In this document: positions 2,459 to 44,998 of the stretch, in pieces
How the letters are laid out: every line of letters begins with the position of its first letter
Position numbering within the stretch: the first letter of the stretch is position 1
Sequence record: PP355091.1
From: Escherichia phage 235Ecol030PP
Direction: 5' to 3' (one strand)
Length of the DNA: 64,000 nucleotides
Made by a program: the position numbers and the translations under genes
Notes under the pieces: generated by a model
What the model saw: the letters and a program-made list of their open reading frames with translations, nothing else
What the model was told of the DNA's origin: nothing
Database searches by the model: none

Positions 2459-4278
2459 TACTGGCTCATCCATTCTTTACGAAGGTCAGCATTATCTCCC
2501 ATGAGCATTTCAAAAAGCTCTTTCCAGTTCTCAGGAAGTTTAACAACATCATATACTGGGTTTTGAATCATCTCACGATATTCAGATTTTTCCAAAGAGC
2601 CAAGTCCCTTAATATAACGGATGCTATGTTTAGGTAGAGTATCTTTGGCACTCTCATATTCAGCGACTGTATAAAACCATTCTTGTTTTTTACCGACCTG
2701 AGCGATGATTACAGGAGTTTTGACAAAGCGAATTCGTCCTTGCTCAAACAATTCTGGCCAATTACTAAAAAATCCGAGCAGAGAAGGATAAATGCTTCCT
2801 AGACCATCATGGTCAGCATCAGTCATAATAGCGATATTATGATAATTCAAGTTTTCAGCTTTTTCACCAAGAACTAGACCAGTTATTGCGCAAATATCAA
2901 ACAGTTCTTTGTTTTTAAGCATATCTGCATAAGACATACCCCAACTGTTGAGAACTTTACCACGTAATGGATAACCACCGTGAAGTTCTTTATCACGAAC
3001 ATCAATAAGATATCCGATAGCCGAATCACCCTCAGTCAAGAAAAGAGTAGTGTCAGCATCTTTACCACAAAGATTCGCTTTAATATGTTTATGAACCTTA
3101 GCTTTAGAAGCCTTTTTAGCCGCTTTAGTTTCTGCTGCTTTTTCTGCCGCCAATTTACGAGCTAATGCTGCTTCAATAATCGGCATTAAAATTGCTTCAT
3201 TATTTAGAATAGCACGTGAAATCTTTTTAGCATCAAGTTGAATATGACTACGGATTTCACCAAATGGAGAAGTCAAACGCTCTTTAGTTTGAGAATCAAA
3301 TCGCATGTTTTTCATATCACGAACAAACATAACGATAGTCAAACATTCTTTGACACGCGCTTTAGTTACATCAATTTTGAATTTACGTTTGATTTGTGGA
3401 ATAAGGTCTTCACAAATATCATCCATAACACAGTCAATGTGATGGCCACCATTCTTAGTGTGAATGTTATTCACATAAGTTAATTGACGAAAACCATCCG
3501 GTGAACGACCAACCGCAATAGAACAATTTTCTTGTTCTTGAACGATAGCATGTTCATCATACTGTCGTGCATATTTCTTAAAATTGCCCTGAACCTTTTT
3601 ACCATTAAAGGTAAATTGAATATCAGGATAAACTACTGCAAGTGTCTGGAGACGATCCAGTGTAATGTCAAGATAAACTTGGGACAGCTCATTAGTTTCA
3701 AATGACATAAAATCTGGAATGAAAGTAACACGAGTTCCTTTCCATTTTCCAGGAATAGTTTCCCAGGATTTATTTTCCATGCCATTTGAACAACGAACTA
3801 CAATATTATTTTGACCATCGCCAGTTTCACCAACAAACATCACAGAAAAAATGTTTGTCAAACTAGAACCAACACCATTCATACCGCCAGTGACGCGTTC
3901 TTTATCATCACCGAAGTTACCACCTGCTTTTGGAATAGTCCATGCAGCAACAGGACCAGGAATTTCTTCACCGGTAGGTGTTTTAACCATCGCCTGTGGA
4001 ATACCACGACCGTTATCTTCAACTGTTACTTGATTGTTTTTAATAGTAACATTAATTTTATTTGCGAATTTAAACTTAGTACGAATACCTTCATCTACTG
4101 AGTTATCGATAATTTCATCAATAAGCTTAACAAGACCAGGTACATACTGAACACTTTCCCATTTACCAAACAGAAAGCGCTCATGCATTTCATTAGCAGA
4201 AGAGCCAATGTACATGCCGCTACGCTTTTTGATATGTTCAATATCGCTCAGAATTTTAATTTCATTCTTAATCATCAC
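2458..4278 (-). CDS. 39: DNA topoisomerase II large subunit (GyrB-like ATPase + Toprim), unsplit 606 aa
   Basis: KRSGMYIGS ATPase N-terminus, GHKL motifs, Toprim LTEGDSA and DxD (TDADHDG); continuous ORF, no internal stop or bypass gap. Confidence 0.9.
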   Translation of the reverse strand: MMIKNEIKILSDIEHIKKRSGMYIGSSANEMHERFLFGKWESVQYVPGLVKLIDEIIDNSVDEGIRTKFKFANKINVTIKNNQVTVEDNGRGIPQAMVKTPTGEEIPGPVAAWTIPKAGGNFGDDKERVTGGMNGVGSSLTNIFSVMFVGETGDGQNNIVVRCSNGMENKSWETIPGKWKGTRVTFIPDFMSFETNELSQVYLDITLDRLQTLAVVYPDIQFTFNGKKVQGNFKKYARQYDEHAIVQEQENCSIAVGRSPDGFRQLTYVNNIHTKNGGHHIDCVMDDICEDLIPQIKRKFKIDVTKARVKECLTIVMFVRDMKNMRFDSQTKERLTSPFGEIRSHIQLDAKKISRAILNNEAILMPIIEAALARKLAAEKAAETKAAKKASKAKVHKHIKANLCGKDADTTLFLTEGDSAIGYLIDVRDKELHGGYPLRGKVLNSWGMSYADMLKNKELFDICAITGLVLGEKAENLNYHNIAIMTDADHDGLGSIYPSLLGFFSNWPELFEQGRIRFVKTPVIIAQVGKKQEWFYTVAEYESAKDTLPKHSIRYIKGLGSLEKSEYREMIQNPVYDVVKLPENWKELFEMLMGDNADLRKEWMSQ

Positions 4279-4344: not shown

Positions 4345-4605
4345 TTATTTAAAACGAATAGTTGAATCCTTAAAGAACAGCCCAGAACATACTGTTCCTT
4401 CTACTTTCTGCCCGGTAGGTCCAATAGCACGAAATCCAGTATGTTGGAAATCATTTTCAGAGCAACCGAGCCAGTTATATCCAGTGATTTCAATATTAGT
4501 AAAACCACTTGAAGACAAAACTTTGGTTGCATTATCAGCATCAGTACATCCTGCTAAAGACACTGCTAATACTAATGCTGCAATAGAACGATTAACATAT
4601 TTCAT
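4345..4605 (-). CDS. putative lipoprotein, 86 aa
   Basis: N-terminal signal peptide with lipobox (LAGC). Confidence 0.6.
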   Translation of the reverse strand: MKYVNRSIAALVLAVSLAGCTDADNATKVLSSSGFTNIEITGYNWLGCSENDFQHTGFRAIGPTGQKVEGTVCSGLFFKDSTIRFK

Positions 4606-4607
4606 AA

Positions 4608-4784
4608 TTACCCTTTAAGCAAGTCGTAAAATCCGCCATTCACATGCTTAGGAGCGGAAACTAACCGAATAGCAATCCGATGACAATCAGGACATACATC
4701 AGTATCCCTTTCAGAAATTTTCTTGATTTTTTCGTATTCTTTTGCGCAGTCTTTGGATTGGCATTTATAATCATAAAGCGGCAT
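4608..4784 (-). CDS. small zinc-ribbon protein (FmdB-like CxxC...CxxC), 58 aa
   Basis: ATG start 3 nt after upstream stop; two CxxC pairs (CQSKDC, CPDC); below ORF-track length cutoff, translated by hand. Confidence 0.45.
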   Translation of the reverse strand: MPLYDYKCQSKDCAKEYEKIKKISERDTDVCPDCHRIAIRLVSAPKHVNGGFYDLLKG

Positions 4785-4786
4785 AA

Positions 4787-5206
4787 TTATTCCTTAAAGT
4801 GAGCTTTCAACATCTGATACAAGGACCATGCTTGTTCATTATTTTCAATAGTAATTTTCATGACTGGGAATTCTGTGAAATCTTCTATTTGTTCTTGCTC
4901 TTCCTGCTCTTGTTCTTCAGCTGCCTGGTATGGATTTTCAACTTCATTAAAGAACTCGGCTTCGTTGCTAGAAAGCCAGATAAAGTTTTCGTCAATGACT
5001 GTACCTCGTGATGAATATCCAACTGTGCCAGTAGATGTCACAATTTTAGTAGGACGCCCGTAATAGTCAACATCTAAAATTTTAAAAGGTTCCATACCTA
5101 AACGCCGCGCATAGATTCCGTTATCAGTATGGTCTTTAATAAAATTTTCTTGAGCTTGTTTATTTTTAAATTGATACCATTTATTAACTTCAAATTTAAT
5201 AGCCAT
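4787..5206 (-). CDS. hypothetical protein with acidic EQ-repeat, 139 aa
   Basis: ORF with [10 protein letters not shown] low-complexity segment; coupled to downstream gene. Confidence 0.6.
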
Positions 5207-14533: not shown

Positions 14534-14770
14534 TTAACCACCTATTGATGTAGGCGTAAACATTGCAGCATTCTTAGTTTTCCAAGTTGCTGCATCGGAA
14601 ACTACATCAGAATATGCTGCCTTTTCAGAAGGAAAGGTCTGATAATGAGAATCTGCAATACGATGCTCGTTAGAATAGATTTCAAATGGAACAGAAACTT
14701 CCATACCTTTAACTTCTTTGCCTTCACCCGCTGGATGAGTAAAGGTCTTGATGTTAACGAAACCACCCAT
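14534..14770 (-). CDS. soc: small outer capsid protein Soc (RB69-like variant), 78 aa
   Basis: MGGFVNIKTF...HYQTFPSEKAAY matches Soc family; late promoter TATAAATA upstream; terminator downstream. Confidence 0.8.
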   Translation of the reverse strand: MGGFVNIKTFTHPAGEGKEVKGMEVSVPFEIYSNEHRIADSHYQTFPSEKAAYSDVVSDAATWKTKNAAMFTPTSIGG

Positions 14771-14801
14771 AATAAACTCCTTTATTGTTTAATTACAGGT
14801 G

Positions 14802-14809
14802 TATTTATA
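14802..14809 (-). promoter_or_regulatory. late promoter (TATAAATA) for soc
   Basis: exact TATAAATA on minus strand ~35 nt upstream of soc ATG. Confidence 0.65.
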
Positions 14810-14951
14810 ACTTACAATTTAGCGGCTTTCCAGAGTTGTTCAATAATCTCTTGGTCTATTTCTTTAGTTATTTCATTACGTAATAAAGCAGTAAGGGCTT
14901 TCGCCCTTTTCTTATTCAACTTTTTGAGTTGGCGTTTATTTAAACGGGACA

Positions 14952-15470
14952 TTAATAACCTCGGTCTTGACGTGCGAAATTTTCAGCATTTTTCAGATAA
15001 TAAAGTTTAAAGATTTCTTCTGCTGTAAGACCAAGACCCTGGAACATATTCAGAACGAAATGAAGAATATCAATCATTTCGAATTTAATTTCCAACTGGT
15101 CTTGTGGAGACAAATCAGTAATCAGAGTTTCACGTCGTTCACCATGTTGTGCCTTCCACGGCTTCCATACACTGCTGGCGGCTTTTTCACCATTGCTCAT
15201 ACCACCAAGTGAAGTCAGCAGTTCACGGAATTCATCATCAATATAATCTTTCTGATTACGCAGCCAATCAACAACATCACCAGCAGTGGCCAATTCATCA
15301 GGATGTTTGTTATGTTTAGGCTTGTCATTTGCCAGACGAACCTGTAGAGATTTCTGCATGTCAAGCATTACCTGCAGCGGGTCTTTTTCATCACCGAGAA
15401 TATCCCAATATTCATTTTGAGCTTTATCAGCGCCTTCGATCAGATGACTACATTCGTTGAAATGTGGCAT
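14952..15470 (-). CDS. 56: dCTP pyrophosphatase (MazG-like), 172 aa
   Basis: size and position between soc and primase region; MazG-like helical fold assumed; recalled T4 gp56 ~171 aa. Confidence 0.7.
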   Translation of the reverse strand: MPHFNECSHLIEGADKAQNEYWDILGDEKDPLQVMLDMQKSLQVRLANDKPKHNKHPDELATAGDVVDWLRNQKDYIDDEFRELLTSLGGMSNGEKAASSVWKPWKAQHGERRETLITDLSPQDQLEIKFEMIDILHFVLNMFQGLGLTAEEIFKLYYLKNAENFARQDRGY

Positions 15471-15471
15471 G

Positions 15472-16122
15472 TTATTTTTCCTTTCTTATGAAGTTTTCTA
15501 TCATATGTCTATAGCAGATATTAGGATAACCTGCCTTGACAGCTATTTTATTAAATTTTGTGCGCTTAGGTCTATTATTATAAACCCACAACTCGTAAAG
15601 CGAATCATACGAATTCCATATCTCACCACGTCTTGGATTCGGTAAACCATATCGAGGTGAATTTTTACCGCTAAATCTTCCTTTTCGGGCTTTACTCATA
15701 TTAGCCTTGGCTTCATCGGATATAATTTTACCTTTATGAGCTAGACGCATTTTAGCCTTAGTTTCTTCAGGTGTTTTTAACCCCTTTATCCACGATGGTT
15801 TTCCAAACCTTGGATTATTTTCACCCGAGAAAAGAGCAGAGTTTTGGATTTTAAGAGTTTCTATTAATCTACTTGTTAATTTAACACCTTTATTATATCG
15901 CATTAAATTTACAGCATAATGCAATCCTCTCACATCTGGATATATTTTAGTTAATAATCTATGAGCTATAAAATGCTCACGCGCAGTTAACTCAACAAGA
16001 TTGTTTTTGCCATCTTCTCCTCCCATACATCTAGGAATTATATGATGGCGTTCTTTATATCCGCCAAGATTCCGGCATTTAGCTTTTGTAATTAAAGCCG
16101 AGTAAATTTTTTGGTAATTCAC
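15472..16122 (-). CDS. HNH (His-Me finger) homing endonuclease with NUMOD3-like repeats, 216 aa, GTG start
   Basis: motif ERHHIIP...N...EHFIAH; basic GK/KG repeats; C-terminal helix-turn-helix-like tail also seen in the other endonuclease ORFs in this window. Confidence 0.7.
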   Translation of the reverse strand: MNYQKIYSALITKAKCRNLGGYKERHHIIPRCMGGEDGKNNLVELTAREHFIAHRLLTKIYPDVRGLHYAVNLMRYNKGVKLTSRLIETLKIQNSALFSGENNPRFGKPSWIKGLKTPEETKAKMRLAHKGKIISDEAKANMSKARKGRFSGKNSPRYGLPNPRRGEIWNSYDSLYELWVYNNRPKRTKFNKIAVKAGYPNICYRHMIENFIRKEK

Positions 16123-20644: not shown

Positions 20645-21007
20645 TTAAAAGAATTTAAATTTTTTCTTTGACCTTTTATTAAATGCATCTTGTAGTTGCA
20701 TTGTAATACATTTTTCTACATGAGGAGCTAACTCAGCTTTTCTTTCTTGGTCAAGAACAGCAAAGTCCATTACAACCTTTCCATCAACCCAATCCAGTTT
20801 TGTTACATACACTATATGTGTAGAACCATCTTCTAGTTTAATGACAATCTCCTGGATAACATTTTCCATAGCAGATTTAATTATCTTAAGAGACTCATTA
20901 AAAAGACGTTCTTTTCTTTCTTCTTCCCCCTCCGAAGAGGGGGATTCGTCGATAATTTCTAGATCTAAATCTAAATCATCTTTATTCATTAAATTCTTCC
21001 ATATCAC
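20645..21007 (-). CDS. hypothetical acidic protein, 120 aa (position of T4 gene 40)
   Basis: ORF overlapping the uvsX 3' end; contains a GC hairpin in its 5' region. Confidence 0.5.
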   Translation of the reverse strand: MIWKNLMNKDDLDLDLEIIDESPSSEGEEERKERLFNESLKIIKSAMENVIQEIVIKLEDGSTHIVYVTKLDWVDGKVVMDFAVLDQERKAELAPHVEKCITMQLQDAFNKRSKKKFKFF

Positions 21008-22157
21008 TTAACTGTTCTAGGTCAGTTTCTAAATCAGCTGCTGATTTACTTTTACTTTCTGGAGATTTAAATTTTTCAACCTTTGAGTTAATCAATTCAT
21101 CAACTTCAGCTTCAACAATTTCATTACTATCAATAGCACCTAACTGATAAGCACGTTTAATAGCATCTCGGAATGGTTGATGCTTAAATAAAGGACCCCA
21201 GAATGTAGTACAGTTGGTATCTTTTGCACGCCAAGATTTTTCTTCGCGAATCATCTCGCCGGTTTCTTCATCAAGAAATTCACGAGCATACCAGCCATTT
21301 TTAGGTTTTACTACAAATCCTAATTCTAGCGCCATATCTAACAATCCAGAATAAGGATCGATACCACCGTCAAATTTAACATCAATAAAGAATTTACTTT
21401 TTTCTTTAACGGTACGAGATTTTTCTACATTTAGAACAAATTGATACCCCTGAAGATCAGAACCATCTTTAATTTGACGTTTACCGATAATGAATACAGT
21501 ATCAGCCGAATACATCGGTCCAGTACCACCTCCCATAACTGTTTTACTAAACATTTCTTGTGTTTCGTATGTATGGTTAATAGCAATACATGGAATATTT
21601 TTAGTACTAAAATAGGGAGTTACGATACGAAATAAGCTTTTCATTGTTTTAGCTCTAGTCATATCACTAACAACTTTTTCATTTAAAGCATCTTCAGTTT
21701 CTTTCTTAGAAGCTAAGTTACCAAGTGAATCGATAAAAACGACTACCTTTTCGCCGCGTTCAATTGCATCCAATTGATTAACCATGTCAATACGTAATTG
21801 CTCAAGTGATTGAACCGGAGTATGAATTACTCGTTCTGGATCGACTCCCATAGACCGCAAATAAGCAGGAGTAATACCAAATTCACTATCATAAAACAAA
21901 CATACTGCATCAGGATATTGACGCATGTAAGATGACACCATTGTTAATCCAAAGTTTGATTTAAATGATTTTGATGGACCTGCCAAAATTAACAGACCAG
22001 ATTGCATACCACCAGTAATTTCACCAGAAAGTGCAATATTCATCATAGGAATTTTTGTTCGAACTACATCTTTTTCATTAAAGAATTTAGATGCTGTTAA
22101 TTCTGCAGTCAATTTAGAAGTAGAAGCTTTAATCAAACGAGATTTTAAATCAGACAT
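20982..22157 (-). CDS. uvsX: RecA-like recombinase UvsX, 391 aa
   Basis: RecA fold with Walker A GPSKSFKS; size matches UvsX. Confidence 0.9.
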   Translation of the reverse strand: MSDLKSRLIKASTSKLTAELTASKFFNEKDVVRTKIPMMNIALSGEITGGMQSGLLILAGPSKSFKSNFGLTMVSSYMRQYPDAVCLFYDSEFGITPAYLRSMGVDPERVIHTPVQSLEQLRIDMVNQLDAIERGEKVVVFIDSLGNLASKKETEDALNEKVVSDMTRAKTMKSLFRIVTPYFSTKNIPCIAINHTYETQEMFSKTVMGGGTGPMYSADTVFIIGKRQIKDGSDLQGYQFVLNVEKSRTVKEKSKFFIDVKFDGGIDPYSGLLDMALELGFVVKPKNGWYAREFLDEETGEMIREEKSWRAKDTNCTTFWGPLFKHQPFRDAIKRAYQLGAIDSNEIVEAEVDELINSKVEKFKSPESKSKSAADLETDLEQLSDMEEFNE

Positions 22158-22165
22158 ATAATACC

Positions 22166-22843
22166 TTATAGTAGTGTTCTTGTTCCACGAAATACTTCGA
22201 GCATTCTTGCATAAGATTTATTTGGAAATCCAGCTTCAATTGCTAATTTTTTAAGCTTAATAGCACCGGGTTTTCCAGAGTTTTCCCATATTTCTTTAAT
22301 CTTTTCAATGTTATCCCACATTATTGGGTCACGTTTATGTGATGGTTTATTTCTATTATAACCATATGGATTATTAAGCAAAGCTTCTTTTCGTTTTGCT
22401 TTAGTTTCTTCTGACTGCTTTTTGCCTAGCTGGGCTTTCCGGCAAACATCACTAAATCCAAGATGTTTTGGTTTTCCTTTTTGAGCTTTTGAAATTTTTT
22501 CTTTGGTTTCTGATGAAACTCTATAACCAATTCTTCTACCACCCTCTCCACCAATTTTTAAATTATAAGTCATAGGATCATTTACCACATCTATTGTTAC
22601 TAATTCTCTTTCAGCATCACGGGCTGATTTAAAATCTTTATAAAACCCAAGAATGCTTAAATTAAAATTTTTCTTACCATACTTTTTCTTGGCTTGTGCT
22701 AATAAAGTTCCTGACCCCATATAACCATCATTTAAATCATCGGTTGAATGAGTTCCATAGTAAATTTTATTATTAACTAAATTAGTTATAACATAAGTAT
22801 AATTATATTTCTTTTCTTTATGTCTTTTCATGTCATTAATCAA
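22166..22843 (-). CDS. GIY-YIG homing endonuclease (Seg-like), 225 aa
   Basis: N-terminal YVITN...KIYYGTH (GIY-YIG), basic NUMOD-like repeats, C-terminal DNA-binding tail. Confidence 0.75.
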   Translation of the reverse strand: MINDMKRHKEKKYNYTYVITNLVNNKIYYGTHSTDDLNDGYMGSGTLLAQAKKKYGKKNFNLSILGFYKDFKSARDAERELVTIDVVNDPMTYNLKIGGEGGRRIGYRVSSETKEKISKAQKGKPKHLGFSDVCRKAQLGKKQSEETKAKRKEALLNNPYGYNRNKPSHKRDPIMWDNIEKIKEIWENSGKPGAIKLKKLAIEAGFPNKSYARMLEVFRGTRTLL

Positions 22844-23684
22844 CTGCTATTGGATGAATAGCATTAAACTTATGAAATGCTTCTGATTTTTCTTTACGCG
22901 AAACGCACATGCGAAGAACCTTTAGTGGTTCATCTTCTTCACCCAACGATTTTCGTTTTTCAATATTAGAAGTTTTCCAACGAGCTTGCTCTGGAAACTC
23001 TCTATTGATTTGTTCAAGCGCTCTATTATGTTTAGAATTACTACGAATTGAACTACACCCACCGGGAGCGTGTGATTTTCCAGATACAACCAGATATTTG
23101 AACAAAGCCAAATGTGGATAACCTTGATTAATTAAATTGAGAAATGCATACATATCTTCACATAAATCAATTTTTCCATACCCAATTTGTTCTGTCGTAA
23201 GTTTTCCGAGGTCATACCATGTATTCGTGAATCCATATGAATTTTCACGATAATTACCCCAAGATGAAGTAATTTTAAAAATAGGTAGACGAGCATGACC
23301 GTGATAATACCCGCAATCCATGGCATCTTCAACATATTGAATCAATTCATAGAACTGTTCACGAGTTAATTGATTAATTTTATCTACGCGCCGTTTATCG
23401 TCTCTCTTTCGTATTGAACTCATACGAATAGTAGTATCATCATCAATCATCCATATTCGTTGACCTGCATACATATCAGTAATTGCTTTACGAGTACCGG
23501 AAATTCCATTAACATCATCAGGAATAGTTACAATTTTAGCTCTAGACCCATAGGCATCATAATAAGCTTTTTCTTCATGTTCACGCACTACAATATGGGG
23601 TTCATAATCAATCGGAAACATATCAAGGGCAGAAACTGCCCCTACACGTTGATAGCTCGGAATTACGAATTGAATCATTTCCAC
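22836..23684 (-). CDS. GT-A-fold glycosyltransferase, 282 aa (at the beta-gt locus)
   Basis: N-terminal VIPSYQR and DxD-like IWMIDDD; does not match my recollection of T4 beta-gt (351 aa). Confidence 0.5.
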   Translation of the reverse strand: MEMIQFVIPSYQRVGAVSALDMFPIDYEPHIVVREHEEKAYYDAYGSRAKIVTIPDDVNGISGTRKAITDMYAGQRIWMIDDDTTIRMSSIRKRDDKRRVDKINQLTREQFYELIQYVEDAMDCGYYHGHARLPIFKITSSWGNYRENSYGFTNTWYDLGKLTTEQIGYGKIDLCEDMYAFLNLINQGYPHLALFKYLVVSGKSHAPGGCSSIRSNSKHNRALEQINREFPEQARWKTSNIEKRKSLGEEDEPLKVLRMCVSRKEKSEAFHKFNAIHPIAVD

Positions 23685-24415
23685 TCACCTTTATAGTCTT
23701 TTTTCACAATATGAGTTTCGCCAGTATTCCACCAATGATCAACCAAGTAAAAATGACGAGAATATACATGAAGACTTCCAACATTCCATATAATAGAACC
23801 TACTTTATACTGACGAGTTGAATCGCCTGCATTCAAATCAGATACTAATTTATCTAATACGTATTTTTGCCATGCATAATCATTACGGAATCCGAAGACC
23901 ACGTCATTTGAGCGCATGCTTACTACTGCATTGACTTTCTTATCACGAATCAGGTACTGTACTGTATTCGTACACATGAAATCTGACATACCATCTTTAT
24001 TGTAGTCAAATTGCATGGATGGACGAGTATAAATCATGATACCACGTCGAGAATCAGGATTTTGACCAAGTTCAGCTAAACACATGTCATATTGAGCATA
24101 GTTATCTTCTGACCAGATAGCCCAACCATAATTCGAGTTAATTTCACCTTTAGAAGATGCTACTTGTTGCCAAATCTTTGGTGTTTCACCCGGAATATCT
24201 TTAACGAACAAGCTCTTAGATTTATACCATTCAAGTTCACGCTGAATGTATTCATCATTAAGAGCGCCAAAAATAAACGGTTCATCTGCTACAAATGATG
24301 CGCCAATAATTTCAATAGTTTTAACACCAGTTTTATCAATTACGAAATCTTTTTCCTTTAATGCAATTCCCAAATGAAGACGGATTTCTTCAACTGTCAA
24401 AGAGTCATTAATCAT
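23675..24415 (-). CDS. 42: dCMP hydroxymethylase (thymidylate synthase fold), 246 aa
   Basis: size 246 aa; position upstream of the glycosyltransferase. Confidence 0.8.
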   Translation of the reverse strand: MINDSLTVEEIRLHLGIALKEKDFVIDKTGVKTIEIIGASFVADEPFIFGALNDEYIQRELEWYKSKSLFVKDIPGETPKIWQQVASSKGEINSNYGWAIWSEDNYAQYDMCLAELGQNPDSRRGIMIYTRPSMQFDYNKDGMSDFMCTNTVQYLIRDKKVNAVVSMRSNDVVFGFRNDYAWQKYVLDKLVSDLNAGDSTRQYKVGSIIWNVGSLHVYSRHFYLVDHWWNTGETHIVKKDYKGEWK

Positions 24416-24568
24416 TTAAACCTCAATTGATACATTCATATTTAACTTGTAACAGTAATAAACCCCAACCTAAAATAATAGTTGGAATCATAAGAGGAAC
24501 CGTTACACTATAGTATATACTTATTATAACCATCAAGATTAAAAGCAATGCTGTTATAATTTTGCTTT

Positions 24569-24820
24569 TCATTCCTTCTCTCTGATGATAATTACCTGAT
24601 TTGGCTGCGCAGACTTTTTAGTTTCACCTGCAATTGACCAAATAAATGTAATAAACCAACCAATAATTGACCAGTTAAACAGTAAAGACGTGAAAAAGAT
24701 TCCTACTGTCGATTTTGACCCACGCATCAAGGCGATAAACCATGGAAGCATGTATATAATAATAGCCAACACGCCTGAAACTAAAACCATAAAAATTGAA
24801 CCTGCTACTAAAGTTTCCAT
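24569..24820 (-). CDS. imm: small membrane protein, 83 aa (Imm-like superinfection immunity)
   Basis: two hydrophobic helices; size and position match T4 imm. Confidence 0.7.
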   Translation of the reverse strand: METLVAGSIFMVLVSGVLAIIIYMLPWFIALMRGSKSTVGIFFTSLLFNWSIIGWFITFIWSIAGETKKSAQPNQVIIIREKE

Positions 24821-40839: not shown

Positions 40840-41310
40840 TTAATCATGTTTCCACACCCCATCGGTATTTGACCAAAGTCGCTGATTATCTGATCCTCGC
40901 CACAGCTTTTTAGTCGGAAGATTTTTCTCATACTTCCCATCAATAATAACATCAACATATTTAAGCATTTCTAGTTGTTTAATATCTTCAAACTTATATC
41001 CTGTCCACAACCAAATGCTTTTATTTGGATAAAGATTTTTTACTGTTTGAACAATGCAATGAATAACATCTCGATTATCAGGATAGAGAGGGTCACCTCC
41101 GGTTATAGTCAATCCTTCTATATAATCATTATTCAAACATTCAATTAATTGTTCTAGTGTTTCACCAGTGAATGGAATACCATTTCTAGCATTCCATGTT
41201 GATTTATTATAACACCCTTCGCATTTATGCAAACAACCTGTAACGAAAAGAACTGTCCTGCATCCAGGGCCATTCACAAAGCAGCACGGGTATATTCTGT
41301 CATAATTCAT
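40840..41310 (-). CDS. nrdG: anaerobic RNR activating protein (radical SAM), 156 aa
   Basis: CxxxCxxC cluster (CLHKCEGCYN), size 156 aa. Confidence 0.85.
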   Translation of the reverse strand: MNYDRIYPCCFVNGPGCRTVLFVTGCLHKCEGCYNKSTWNARNGIPFTGETLEQLIECLNNDYIEGLTITGGDPLYPDNRDVIHCIVQTVKNLYPNKSIWLWTGYKFEDIKQLEMLKYVDVIIDGKYEKNLPTKKLWRGSDNQRLWSNTDGVWKHD

Positions 41311-42139
41311 TTATATATTTCCAATTATAGCCTTCAACACTTTTACGTTCGCCATTTAAACATTTTAAAATATTTCCTTTGCTAGAAATATTAAAATATT
41401 TTGCTGCGTCTGGTATATAATTAAATGTTTTTAAAAGAACACCATCTTTATATGCGCCAAATAAATTAAGAGTATATTTTTCTCGAAGACGTTGATGTTT
41501 CCTTTTCATAACCTCAGGATTTGCATACGCCAACCTCAATGAATTTCTATGTTTTTCTTTTACTTCAGGTTTTTGCATTGCTAACTTAGTTAGCCTGGAA
41601 ATTTTATTTCTAACTTCGTCAGTTTTCATTGCATTTGACAAATTTAATAAAGTTTTATTTCTAACTTCAGGTTTTTGCATTGCTAACTTAGTTAGTTCTC
41701 TATGTCTTTTTCTAAAATCGTCATCCTTCCATATATTTTTCGATAATTTTGACATAGAGCGGTGAAATAATTCCTTTTCACCGGAATACAATTTAAGAAT
41801 TTCATCCAATTCATCTGTATTAAATCTATCGGTATTCGAGTTTATCATTCTATGAAAGGCATAACACATTTTACTATTACTTGTTTTAGCTAAATAGTAA
41901 TGAGCTAACGCGTGGTCATAATATGACAAATTAACAATATTCCATTTATCTGTTTTATATTCAGGAAATATAGATTTGGGAAGCACGTGATGTGCTTCCG
42001 TTTTTCCTTTTATTTTAGGATTATTATAATTTTTTGTTATCAAATCAACATATGACAATAGTAAATCATTATTTTCTTCAAATATTAAAGATAATTTATC
42101 ATTCACAAAATCGCAAGGATAAAATCTATCATAATTCAT
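41300..42139 (-). CDS. HNH homing endonuclease (Mob-like), 279 aa, with NUMOD3 repeats
   Basis: AHHVLP...N...DHALAH HNH motif; duplicated LTKLAMQKPEV units; first 13 codons mimic the nrdG N-terminus. Confidence 0.75.
   Translation of the reverse strand: MNYDRFYPCDFVNDKLSLIFEENNDLLLSYVDLITKNYNNPKIKGKTEAHHVLPKSIFPEYKTDKWNIVNLSYYDHALAHYYLAKTSNSKMCYAFHRMINSNTDRFNTDELDEILKLYSGEKELFHRSMSKLSKNIWKDDDFRKRHRELTKLAMQKPEVRNKTLLNLSNAMKTDEVRNKISRLTKLAMQKPEVKEKHRNSLRLAYANPEVMKRKHQRLREKYTLNLFGAYKDGVLLKTFNYIPDAAKYFNISSKGNILKCLNGERKSVEGYNWKYINEL
41566..41700. repeat. direct repeat of ~27 nt within the HNH gene (NUMOD3 repeat units)
   Basis: aggtttttgcattgctaacttagttag occurs twice about 103 nt apart. Confidence 0.8.
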
Positions 42140-43441
42140 TGGTGTTTAACCCTATGCATGATTTCTTTATTTTTACCGAGATTAAATCCGCGTTCGTTCG
42201 GGTTTCCAAGATATCCGCATGTTCTTCTTATGGTGTTCATCTTTTTAGGATCAGTTTCTCCACAAATAGAACAAACAAATCCGTTTTCAGTAGGAGTCAT
42301 TTCATGGGTACTTCCACATGTAAAACATTTATCTACTGGCATATTAACACCAAAATAATCTAAATGCTGTGCAGCATAATCCCATACGGCCTCAAGACCT
42401 TTTAGGTTATTTTTCATATCAGGAAGTTCAACATAAGAAATGTGACCACCTGTCGCAATGAAATGATATGGGGCTTCGCGAGAAATCTTTTCAAACGGAG
42501 TAATATTTTCTTCTACTGAAACATGGAAACTGTTAGTGTACCAGCCTTTATCAGTAACATCTTTTACACTTCCATATTTTTCTGTATCAAGTTTACAGAA
42601 GCGATAACAAAGGTTTTCAGCAGGAGTCGAATACAAACTAAAAGCAAACCCAGTTCTTTCAGTCCACTGTTTAAGACGAGCATTCATTTTAGTTAAAATT
42701 TCTTGTCCAATATCACGACCGACAAGAATATTCAATTCATGAATACCAATGTATCCTAAAGACACTGAACTTCTGCCATTTTTAAATAACTCAATTATAT
42801 CGTCATCAGGTTTAAGACGAACCCCGAATGCACCTTCTTGGTAAAGAATAGGAGCAACAGTCGCTTTAACTCCTTTTAAGGAACTAATTCTACACATCAA
42901 TGCTTCAAAACATAAATCCATTCGTTCATTGAACAATTCAACAAATTTCTGTTCATTGAACTGTGTTCCAATATAAGAATCTAACGCAATACGAGGAAGA
43001 TTCAATGTTACAACGCCAAGATTATTACGTCCATCAAGAATTTCATTACCAGTCGAATCTTTCCATACGCTCAAGAAACTACGGCAACCCATTGGAGAAA
43101 CAGGAATAGATGAACCGGTGATAGCTTTATTGTTCTTAGCTGAAATAATATCAGGATACATTCTTTTGCTTGCACACTTTAGAGCAAGCTGCTTAATATC
43201 ATAGTTCGGATCGTCTTTGTAAAGATTAACGCCTTCTTCGACGAACATAACAAGCTTAGGGAAAATAGGAGTTATCCCATCACGACCAAGACCTTTAATA
43301 CGATTTTTCAGAATTGCTTTCTGAATCATTCGTTCAGTCCAGTCAGTTCCCGTACCAAATGTAATTGTTACAAAAGGAGTCTGTCCGTTTGAACTGAAAA
43401 GTGTATTTACTTCATCATTATATTCAGCATGAGTCGCAAAT
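42136..43441 (-). CDS. nrdD: anaerobic ribonucleotide reductase NrdD, exon 2 (boundary approximate)
   Basis: C-terminal glycyl radical motif RRTCGYLG and CxxC zinc ribbon; 5' limit set by the upstream endonuclease stop. Confidence 0.8.
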
Positions 43442-44470
43442 TCATGCTCGTTTATATGAAACAACAAAATTTGGATAGTCCATAGATATGCAACGTTCTT
43501 TTATAGTGCTAGGATGAAAATTTAGCGCTTTAGCTGCTTCTATATAAGACGTATACTTAATACCGTCAACAACCACATATTCAGGAACTTTATGAATAGT
43601 AGTCTTAATACTCAAAACAAGAGGATGAGTTTCGACTTCACTTTCAGTGCAATTTAAATATTCCGCTGCTTTTTTAAAACTTCTAAAAGTTTTATTTTTA
43701 AGCTTTATCGATACTTGTTTTTTACTTTTTCGACTATTGATATTATTTTGCACATGTTCCTTAGATCTTCCGTTTTTAGCATAATATTCAGCTACAGAAG
43801 ATTTTATATTGTTTTTATGAGATTCGGATAACACTTTACCCTTATGAGCATCTCTTAATTTTTGAATATGTTCTTCAGTATCCGGATGCTTATAAAACTT
43901 TTTACCGCCTATGGATTTATTTAAACATTTTTTGCTATAAAAATATTTACGTATGACCTCTTCTTCATGTTTTAATGCATCTTTATAACTATCAAATGTT
44001 TTTAAAATTATCCATTTAGTAGGTGTATCAGTTTTTAAGCGTTCATTTATATACTTAGATGACGTTGTGTAAGTTTTCCAGTTTGTGGGCTTGTTTTTAA
44101 TTGTTCTAAATTTTTTATAACCGATATAAATGTCGCCATTAGAAAACTTAACTAAGTATGTAAATGCGTCTTTATCTTTTATTTTAGTACAACGTCTTTT
44201 TATCCATTTCATTGTTTCACCTCGTATTCATAAGATAATCTTATTTATACAAGATGACTGCTGCATGTCGCCATGCAGATTAGACTATATCTTCATCTTT
44301 CGATGCCGGCCGTTTCGAATAGCATTAGCTTCTATTCTACACCGCTACATTCATCACGGTTAGTCGTTAGGCATTTAGTTCAAAAGAACATTTAGCACGG
44401 GATTGTCTACTAGAGAGGTTCCCCGTTTAGACCGGTTTTACATGAGCCTGAATTAAATTAACTCATACGC
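43431..44470 (-). mobile_element. group I intron in nrdD carrying a GIY-YIG endonuclease ORF (boundaries approximate)
   Basis: nrdD frame interrupted; conserved group I core strings (AAGATATAGTC S-element-like, AAACGGGGAAC) at 44213-44452. Confidence 0.75.
43442..44212 (-). CDS. intron-encoded GIY-YIG homing endonuclease (I-TevII-like), 256 aa
   Basis: GDIYIGYKK GIY-YIG motif; located inside the nrdD intron. Confidence 0.75.
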   Translation of the reverse strand: MKWIKRRCTKIKDKDAFTYLVKFSNGDIYIGYKKFRTIKNKPTNWKTYTTSSKYINERLKTDTPTKWIILKTFDSYKDALKHEEEVIRKYFYSKKCLNKSIGGKKFYKHPDTEEHIQKLRDAHKGKVLSESHKNNIKSSVAEYYAKNGRSKEHVQNNINSRKSKKQVSIKLKNKTFRSFKKAAEYLNCTESEVETHPLVLSIKTTIHKVPEYVVVDGIKYTSYIEAAKALNFHPSTIKERCISMDYPNFVVSYKRA

Positions 44471-44998
44471 CTGAAACGCGTCATAGACATCTTTTTCTGT
44501 TTTAGATTGAGCATAATTCAACGCATCAGCGATTTGCCATTTTTCTGCATCCTCAATATGTTTTGCATAGGTGCGTTTAACATAAGGAGAAAGTACTTTA
44601 TCTACATTCGCAAAAGTCGTTCCGCCATATTGATGGGAAGCAACCTGTGCAGTAATTTGTGCCATAATTGCAGTAGCAACGCCAATTGATTTAGGAGTTT
44701 CAATCTGTGCATTACCGAGCTTAAATCCGTTCTCAAGCATTCCTTTTAAATCTACTAAACAGCAATTAGTAAATGGAAGAGCAGGGGAATAATCAATATC
44801 GTGCACGTGAATAATTCCGCTTTCATGCGCTTTCATAATAAAAGACGGGACCATATTTTTGGCAATGTGTTTAGACACAATACCAGCCATAAGGTCCCGT
44901 TGAGTTGGAAAAACACGAGAATCTTTATTAGCATTCTCGTTTAAAAGGTCTTTATTAGTTTTATGAATCAATCCTTCAATTTCTTTTTCAATTGTCAT
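44456..44998 (-). CDS. nrdD: NrdD exon 1 (3' limit approximate; in-frame stop at 44453-44455 lies inside the intron)
   Basis: N-terminal region of class III RNR; frame runs into intron sequence. Confidence 0.75.

Follow-up and report, generated by a model that had tools for sequence, protein, structure and literature searches.

The homing endonuclease gene segA and a linked half of uvsX in a T-even phage with a T2/T6-type glucosyltransferase gene

Between the recombinase gene uvsX and a glycosyltransferase gene of Escherichia phage 235Ecol030PP (PP355091.1) lies an open reading frame for which an earlier note, made from the letters of the DNA, had proposed a free-standing Seg-like GIY-YIG homing endonuclease. 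The same note regarded the position as a likely site of intronless homing and the endonuclease as a possible driver of the different glycosyltransferase cassette beside it. These proposals raise the question of which gene this is, whether its occurrence among related phages bears the mark of homing, and on which side of the gene, towards uvsX or towards the transferase gene, any sequence has been carried along with it. The 64,000-nt stretch of the phage genome that was analyzed is referred to below as the window.

The gene and its setting

The window comes from a T-even (Tequatrovirus) phage that is collinear with T4 from rIIA onward; it is ~96% identical to T4 and to many relatives and identical to none of them. 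Read along the minus strand, gene 42 (23675-24415) is followed by the glycosyltransferase gene (22836-23678), segA, uvsX (20982-22157), and genes 40 and 41; the transferase gene, which had been described as downstream of the endonuclease gene, is therefore its upstream neighbor on the coding strand. Matches to PHROG 842 (E = 1.4e-86) and to the Pfam family TAGT identify this neighbor as a beta-glucosyl-HMC-alpha-glucosyltransferase gene (beta-alpha-gt) of the T2/T6 type, an assignment supported by the annotations in SG1, PD112, and 215Ecol030PP, and its reading frame is listed as 22836-23678/23684 (280-282 aa). The window gene and the sequence at the same position in T4, beta-gt, share ~51% identity, that is, they are unrelated. 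On the other side, downstream of segA, uvsX encodes a RecA-like recombinase of 391 aa (Pfam T4_UVSX_C, E = 5.7e-39, and RecA), and the UvsX protein of the window is identical to that of T4.

The reading frame itself was listed on the minus strand at 22166-22843, with 225 aa counted from a TTG codon. This interval is indeed an intact open reading frame, although its upstream end has to be moved. The ATG at 22829-22831 is almost certainly the start used in vivo, since the resulting protein, at 221 aa, is exactly as long as T4 SegA and as the product annotated in five relatives, whereas the form beginning at TTG overlaps the transferase stop codon (22836-22838). The segA CDS thus extends over 22166-22831 on the minus strand, from the ATG at 22831-22829 to the TAA stop codon at 22168-22166, and the annotations of T4, 215Ecol030PP, ESh36, LH2, Manna, and PD112 contain this 666-nt CDS as well. 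The upstream extension to TTG (22832-22843, minus strand), which holds the 4-nt spacer and the transferase stop, is probably untranslated, as the annotations of T4 and other phages use the ATG. The tight packing noticed at first sight was confirmed: 4 nt (22832-22835) separate the transferase stop from the segA ATG, and 8 nt (22158-22165) separate the segA stop from the uvsX ATG, the latter layout being the same in T4. segA is a separate reading frame between the two genes, outside any intron or intein, and an Rfam scan of 20000-46000 found no family.

Judged from its sequence, the reading frame is segA of T4, a free-standing GIY-YIG homing endonuclease gene, and both the gene and its class are already known; segA is said to have been known since 1992, and its protein was reportedly characterised in 1994. 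The window protein and T4 SegA (NP_049657) are identical at 220 of 221 residues and their genes at 664 of 666 nt. The sole residue change is S188P, and Pro188 is the usual form, found in the window and most carriers (including FL12, ESh36, and LH2, whose SegA proteins are identical to that of the window), with Ser188 of the T4 reference being the outlier. The proposal of a free-standing Seg-type GIY-YIG endonuclease was therefore right, and the identification with segA means that the finding as such is not new, the enzyme having already been purified and characterised. In T4, segA is inserted with beta-gt on one side and uvsX, its target gene, on the other (PMC2988022). T4 SegA is active and site-specific, and its Mg2+-dependent cleavage leaves in uvsX a double-strand break that has a 2-nt 3' extension (PMC2988022, which cites Sharma and Hinton 1994). 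The window gene shares with T4 segA its position and orientation directly upstream of uvsX, the uvsX promoter embedded in it, and 23-27 nt upstream of the start codon.

The GIY-YIG catalytic domain occupies residues 10-90 (22562-22804, minus strand), where the Pfam profile PF01541 is matched over positions 2-78 of 78 with an E value of 3.3e-9 to 3.4e-9 and 37.4 bits, the gathering cut-off being 22.6. The GIY-YIG motifs pointed out earlier are real, YTYVITN...KIYYGTH corresponding to residues 11-28 of the 221-aa form. In an alignment to I-TevI of the T4 td intron, the sequence of which was verified against PDB 1MK0 (comparison structures 1MK0 and 1LN0), Y13, Y24, G26, E74-R75-E76 (ERE), and N90 of SegA align with Y6, Y17, G19, E73-R74-E75, and N90. 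The two proteins therefore have in common the GIY-YIG core with its Tyr/Tyr/Gly/Glu/Asn positions, and both are modular, with an N-terminal nuclease and a C-terminal DNA-binding region. I-TevI cuts at a fixed distance from the sequence that it binds, as SegA would also do. Unlike I-TevI, SegA is encoded outside an intron, has a different C-terminal module, and lacks an aligned counterpart of Arg27; in a MAFFT alignment, the I-TevI segment with R27 faces a gap in SegA, SegF, and other Seg-like proteins, which does not imply inactivity because T4 SegA has the same sequence there and is nevertheless active. A NUMOD3 motif at residues 102-123 (22463-22528, minus strand; Pfam PF07460, E = 1.3e-6, in two stretches) forms part of the linker or DNA-binding region. 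Residues ~131-214 (22190-22441, minus strand) form a C-terminal module that is presumed to serve in DNA binding or target recognition; it is 33% identical over 87 aa (E = 2e-10) to the C-terminus of an HNH-like reading frame at 15472-16122 of the same window. The whole protein matches PHROG 314, "homing endonuclease" (E = 1.7e-43), and a phmmer search of SegA against PDB sequences gave no match at E ≤ 0.1.

Expression signals of uvsX are contained in segA. A middle promoter of uvsX, consisting of a MotA box TTTGCTTAA, 12 nt, and TATAAT, lies inside segA at 22355-22382 on the minus strand, as indicated by a pattern match and by the -35/-10 annotation of X03099, and is identical in T4. The uvsX ribosome-binding site AAGGT (22163-22167, minus strand) shares nucleotides with the segA stop codon; it was read from the sequence and from the annotation of X03099, which was carried over by offset. 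X03099 is an old GenBank record of T4 uvsX, in which segA is frameshifted by sequencing errors, and it was used solely for the promoter and ribosome-binding-site annotation. Embedded promoters for a downstream gene have been argued to favor retention of the endonuclease gene, for segA, segG, and others (PMC2988022). Upstream of segA in the window, a pattern search found neither a late (TATAAATA) nor a MotA-type promoter, and a sigma-70 scan for a segA promoter gave the shuffled expectation; segA is here likely transcribed by read-through from gene 42 and the transferase gene. T4 differs in this respect, as its upstream gene, beta-gt, is followed by a 164-nt spacer holding a relaxed MotA-like match as a candidate promoter, which has no counterpart in the window with its beta-alpha-gt and 4-nt spacer. 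A hairpin pairing the segA start-codon region was no better than in shuffles (z = -1.6), and no RNA structure was found at the segA/uvsX junction (z = +0.8).

Distribution of segA and the linked part of uvsX

The uvsX-gene 42 interval is found in 556 phage records, 503 of which match it at 90% identity or more. segA is present in 26 records, namely T4 isolates, RB55, RB59, FL12, and eight records with beta-alpha-gt, which beyond the window represent seven phages (ESh36, LH2, 215Ecol030PP, Manna, CJY920, CE1, and PD112, the last deposited twice), and ~95% of the close relatives are without it. The empty site is precise: in SG1, FL23, ZCEC14, PhiZZ30, SA20RB, 101112UKE3-1, and B1.1, a 77-nt spacer stands in place of segA, uvsX of the segA-less phages is two codons longer (MSIADLKS versus MSDLKS), and homology of the transferase gene restarts at 22834, right past the segA start codon. 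Loss of the motifs or disruption of the reading frame in relatives, which the earlier note had named as evidence against its reading, was not seen, the frame being intact, with 0-4 substitutions each, in all seven non-T4 carriers examined. Other Seg-like matches were all below 60% identity and mostly confined to the N-terminal domain, with no close full-length relative outside the segA records, and among the viral contigs of IMG/VR no close SegA relative was found (best match 43% identity, N-terminal domain only). The comparison thus fits an intronless-homing site, for it combines a presence/absence polymorphism and a precise empty site with near-zero divergence and a linked flank.

This linked flank lies on the uvsX side. 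Over the 1360 nt of 21499-22858, only 3 mismatches separate the window from T4, where the overall divergence of 4.2% would lead one to expect ~57 (Poisson P ~6e-21), so that divergence at segA and the adjoining uvsX block is ~20-fold under the background; the longest mismatch-free run in the whole window against T4, 771 nt, falls in this region. An alignment of 16 phages delimits a block comprising uvsX codons 1-214 (21516-22157, minus strand) as a divergent "T4-type" allele and putative obligatory co-conversion tract. The block is 99.5-100% identical in seven of the eight carriers compared and 96% identical in PD112. In six phages without segA, its identity drops to 77-78%, with 37 amino-acid changes, and the flanks that border it are 94-98% identical in all 16 phages aligned. 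When the whole collection is considered, 28 records contain the T4-type block at 95% identity or more: all 26 with segA and, in addition, SG1 (deposited twice). No sequence in the collection fell between 96% and ~79% over the full block, and the next best level, ~79%, is no closer than that of phages of other genera.

The linkage between segA and the uvsX block is near-complete, not absolute. SG1 has the T4-type block together with the segA-less uvsX start and spacer, the crossover lying within 22123-22139, and PD112 has short patches of the common allele within the block. Six SNPs in segA and a few in the block are common to CJY920 and PD112, which thus represent a slightly diverged second sub-lineage of the same cassette; CE1, which was outside the 16-phage alignment and was compared from the collection search, resembles PD112 in identity (segA 97.7%, block 96.1%). 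A shifted left boundary of the block in CJY920 and PD112 was considered and rejected, as the differences at 21525-21540 are partly private and the six segA SNPs are also shared.

The cut site and a possible route of transfer

The SegA site was mapped on T4 DNA; SegA is reportedly listed in REBASE and by Belfort and Roberts 1997 as F-TevI, with a 24-nt recognition sequence, GAAACACAAGAAATGTTTAGTAAA, and a cut 14 nt beyond it. This putative SegA site has one exact match in the 64 kb, at 21543-21566 on the minus strand, which is the uvsX coding strand, and 0 matches in 100 shuffles. The presumed cut would fall at ~21528/21529, ~640 nt from segA and ~13 nt inside the distal block edge at 21516, so that the block would span the distance from segA to the cut site of SegA. 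Among the loci fetched, the 24-mer is exact in every one with the T4-type block, SG1 included, and in none of the segA-less loci of the common type, where the common-type allele (context GAAACAATTGAAATGTTTAGTAAA), the presumed recipient, has 3 mismatches in the 24-mer (21/24) and 4 in the 14-nt spacer. This speaks against the homing account: as the exact 24-mer is kept in carriers, these would be without the usual immunity that arises from destruction of the site. We infer that the block arose through homing from the putative site and that SegA can cleave uvsX of the common type. The putative F-TevII/SegE site gave no match in the window, which would follow from absence of its locus.

The position of the 24-mer inside uvsX agrees with uvsX as the SegA target (PMC2988022), and the extent of the block is what double-strand-break repair would predict for an endonuclease that cuts at a distance. 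Free-standing endonucleases cut away from their own gene, and resection must reach the homology that flanks that gene (PMC2988022). Because resection must pass the endonuclease gene, the stretch between the cut and the gene would always be co-converted.

Based on the distribution of segA, the linked block, and the position of the presumed cut, a route of transfer is proposed in which segA, found here in a Tequatrovirus phage with a T2/T6-type transferase gene, has spread together with the 5' half of uvsX by homing, a reading to which we assign a probability of about 85%. When a carrier and a phage without segA infect the same cell, SegA would make a double-strand break in the recipient uvsX, ~640 nt from the position of segA. 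The break would then be resected and repaired by the phage recombination machinery with the segA-carrying genome as the template, and the sequence from the break to segA would be copied into the recipient. The transferred unit would be a cassette of ~1.3 kb (21516-22833) made up of the first 214 uvsX codons and segA, which would replace the recipient's uvsX 5' half and the 77-nt spacer between uvsX and the transferase gene. Since the arrival of segA removed this spacer, the middle promoter of uvsX and part of its ribosome-binding site now lie within segA, and with these signals captured, a simple deletion of segA would be costly.

A more specific version of this proposal, towards which the evidence tilts somewhat, holds that segA and uvsX codons 1-214 are themselves the mobile unit, with the segA insertion point and the SegA cut site as its edges, and that this unit may have brought a foreign uvsX half (~22% nucleotide divergence, 37 amino-acid changes) into Tequatrovirus and kept it linked to segA by repeated homing. 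If so, SG1 would have arisen in nature either because conversion was incomplete or because segA was lost. No description of such a cassette of segA and half of uvsX was found in the literature searched, nor was a published cross found that demonstrates homing of segA specifically; super-Mendelian inheritance has been stated in general for the seg genes in T4 x T2 infections (PMC2988022). The evidence for co-conversion with segA given here is accordingly a population footprint, not a cross.

Alternatives, parallels, and meaning

The block could also be an ordinary mosaic segment that was acquired by homologous recombination among co-infecting T-even phages, with segA as a passive passenger. T-even genomes are mosaic and identity is patchy throughout the window, the uvsX block of SG1 stands without segA, and the common-allele patches of PD112 lie inside the block, all of which such an origin would accommodate; it is nonetheless unlikely, because 26 of the 28 block records carry segA, the edges of the block are segA itself and a point ~13 nt from the presumed cut site, and divergence is ~20-fold below background. 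In addition, endonuclease activity directed at uvsX is known for the T4 protein (PMC2988022). It is also conceivable that segA is no longer mobile, or only weakly so, and is retained through the uvsX middle promoter and ribosome-binding site that it has captured. The MotA-type promoter at 22355-22382 within segA, the overlap of the uvsX Shine-Dalgarno sequence with the segA stop, and the fact that carriers keep the site presumably preferred in vitro in their own uvsX fit this reading, for which a case has been made for segA, segG, and others (PMC2988022). Such retention is compatible with transfer by homing and does not exclude it; as an account that dispenses with present mobility, it is quite improbable, as it leaves unexplained both why the cassette is almost the same in phages with 3-6% divergence in the rest of their sequence and why the block ends at the cut site.

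The suggestion that SegA-induced breaks caused the replacement of the transferase cassette has in its favor the adjacency of segA to the transferase gene and one further observation. T4 retains, directly upstream of segA, ~23 nt that resemble the 3' end of beta-alpha-gt, so that cassettes have recombined right beside segA. Within this remnant, CATTAATCAACT is common to the window and GCTATTCGATGAA is common to the segA-less beta-gt phages, so that the two transferase cassettes have been joined by recombination within a very short stretch of shared sequence. The segA-less beta-gt phages, however, already have the GCTATTCGATGAA remnant, and all four combinations of segA and transferase type occur: segA with beta-gt in T4, RB55, RB59, and FL12; segA with beta-alpha-gt in the window and the eight records (seven phages) named above; beta-gt without segA, together with the common uvsX allele, in HMD-9, Pu-Krd-SF1-7, PTE-Eco15, and 236Ecol005PP; and beta-alpha-gt without segA in hundreds of records, beta-alpha-gt being the majority state. 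Moreover, the carriers share no conversion tract on the transferase side of segA, and both the established target and the presumed cut are in uvsX, across segA from the transferase gene. A role of segA as the driver of the cassette swap is therefore not upheld, and we give it hardly any credence. Very improbable, too, is the view that SegA chiefly serves the phage, through exclusion of competitor markers or amplification of nearby genes, and is not purely selfish. It can appeal to T6 SegB, which drives segmental amplification of anti-defence loci (PMC13096335), and to marker exclusion by T4 endonucleases, which is established; against it, the window has no sign of amplification or of defence cargo beside segA, and ~95% of the close relatives manage without the gene.

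The spread of segA by homing together with part of its target gene has its closest parallels in SegG with gene 32 and SegF with gene 56 of T4, for which intronless homing with co-conversion and localised marker exclusion has been described (PMC2988022). In these cases, as with segA, a free-standing GIY-YIG gene adjoins a conserved essential gene, its product breaks that neighbor some distance away from the endonuclease gene, and the flank is co-converted (PMC2988022). The segA case differs in that its evidence is a footprint in natural populations, not a cross, and in that the co-inherited tract amounts to half of uvsX (214 codons, 37 amino-acid differences). A converse case is present elsewhere in the window, which is without segF and the gene 56 of which is only 76% identical to that of T4.

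segA in this phage is a known gene in a less common, already sequenced context. The sole addition made here is the natural linkage of segA with one divergent half of uvsX, which extends as far as the presumed cut site, and it illustrates a known mechanism. It provides a natural case of a principle shown mainly in laboratory crosses, namely that an endonuclease cutting away from its own gene takes along the part of the target gene that lies in between, which here would have given rise, inside one phage genus, to two strongly diverged alleles of half of an essential recombinase gene. The differences within the block offer ready natural markers for a segA homing experiment. For annotators and phylogeneticists, it means that the 5' half of uvsX in T4 and its segA-carrying relatives has a history unlike that of the rest of the genome.

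Neighbors of segA in related phages

The T4-type 5' block of uvsX occurs without segA in a sole phage of the collection, Salmonella phage SG1 (2244-2941 of its locus). The block of SG1 includes the exact 24-nt SegA site, and the changeover to the segA-less sequence falls within a 17-nt interval equivalent to window 22123-22139. SG1 could be either an incomplete conversion product or the outcome of segA loss.

On the other side of segA, the 164-nt spacer that separates it from beta-gt in T4 (3533-3696 of the T4 locus) holds a short remnant of the 3' end of beta-alpha-gt. By eye, an unannotated hydrophobic ORF of 24 codons (MLGPLLLIIGLGLFAFWDFFCYID) was also found in this spacer, and in FL12 a hypothetical CDS of 132 nt is annotated at the spacer position between beta-gt and segA.

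In 215Ecol030PP, a second Seg-like endonuclease gene, encoding 213 aa (4376-5017 of its locus), separates gene 42 from the transferase gene; it matches PHROG 314 (E=8e-30) and carries only a hypothetical annotation. This gene is not present in the window and was also found in phages Manna and B1.1; because B1.1 carries it without segA, the two genes are independent of each other. Beyond gene 42, on the side of imm, lies a strongly hydrophobic 49-aa ORF (window 24423-24572, minus strand). The T4 reference has no annotation for it, whereas ESh36, FL12, FL23, and other phages list it as a hypothetical gene; it gave no family match.

Gene 56 and the absence of segF

T4 segF is absent from the window (14540-15485 region), and the gene 56 of the window shows only 76% identity to the T4 gene, in comparison with 96-98% for the adjacent DNA. 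Gene 56 is the target gene of SegF in T2. With segF missing and gene 56 diverged relative to T4, this arrangement mirrors, in reverse, what is seen at segA and uvsX.

Endonuclease-like ORFs elsewhere in the window

In the nrdD region (42136-44998, minus strand), a 256-aa GIY-YIG/NUMOD1 ORF (43442-44212) that resembles I-TevII divides nrdD, leaving one ORF at 44453-44998 and another at 42136-43467. The interruption is presumably the nrdD group I intron; scanning of 20000-46000 against Rfam gave no intron family match at the gathering threshold. Beside nrdG, the position of T4 mobC is occupied by a larger ORF of 279 aa (41300-42139, minus strand), which has histidines in an HNH-like arrangement and, toward its C-terminus, motifs that resemble NUMOD. 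The 13 residues with which this ORF begins (MNYDRFYPCDFVN) are almost the same as those at the start of the neighboring nrdG product (MNYDRIYPCCFVN), which suggests that a gene start was duplicated at the insertion junction.

A 216-aa ORF (15472-16122, minus strand), at a position where T4 has no gene, combines an HNH-like N-terminus (ERHHIIP...EHFIAH) with a NUMOD3 motif. Gene 56 (14952-15470) lies directly downstream. The C-terminal 87 aa of this ORF show 33% identity to the C-terminal half of SegA (E=2e-10), and the same presumed DNA-binding module is thus joined to two different nuclease types within one genome.
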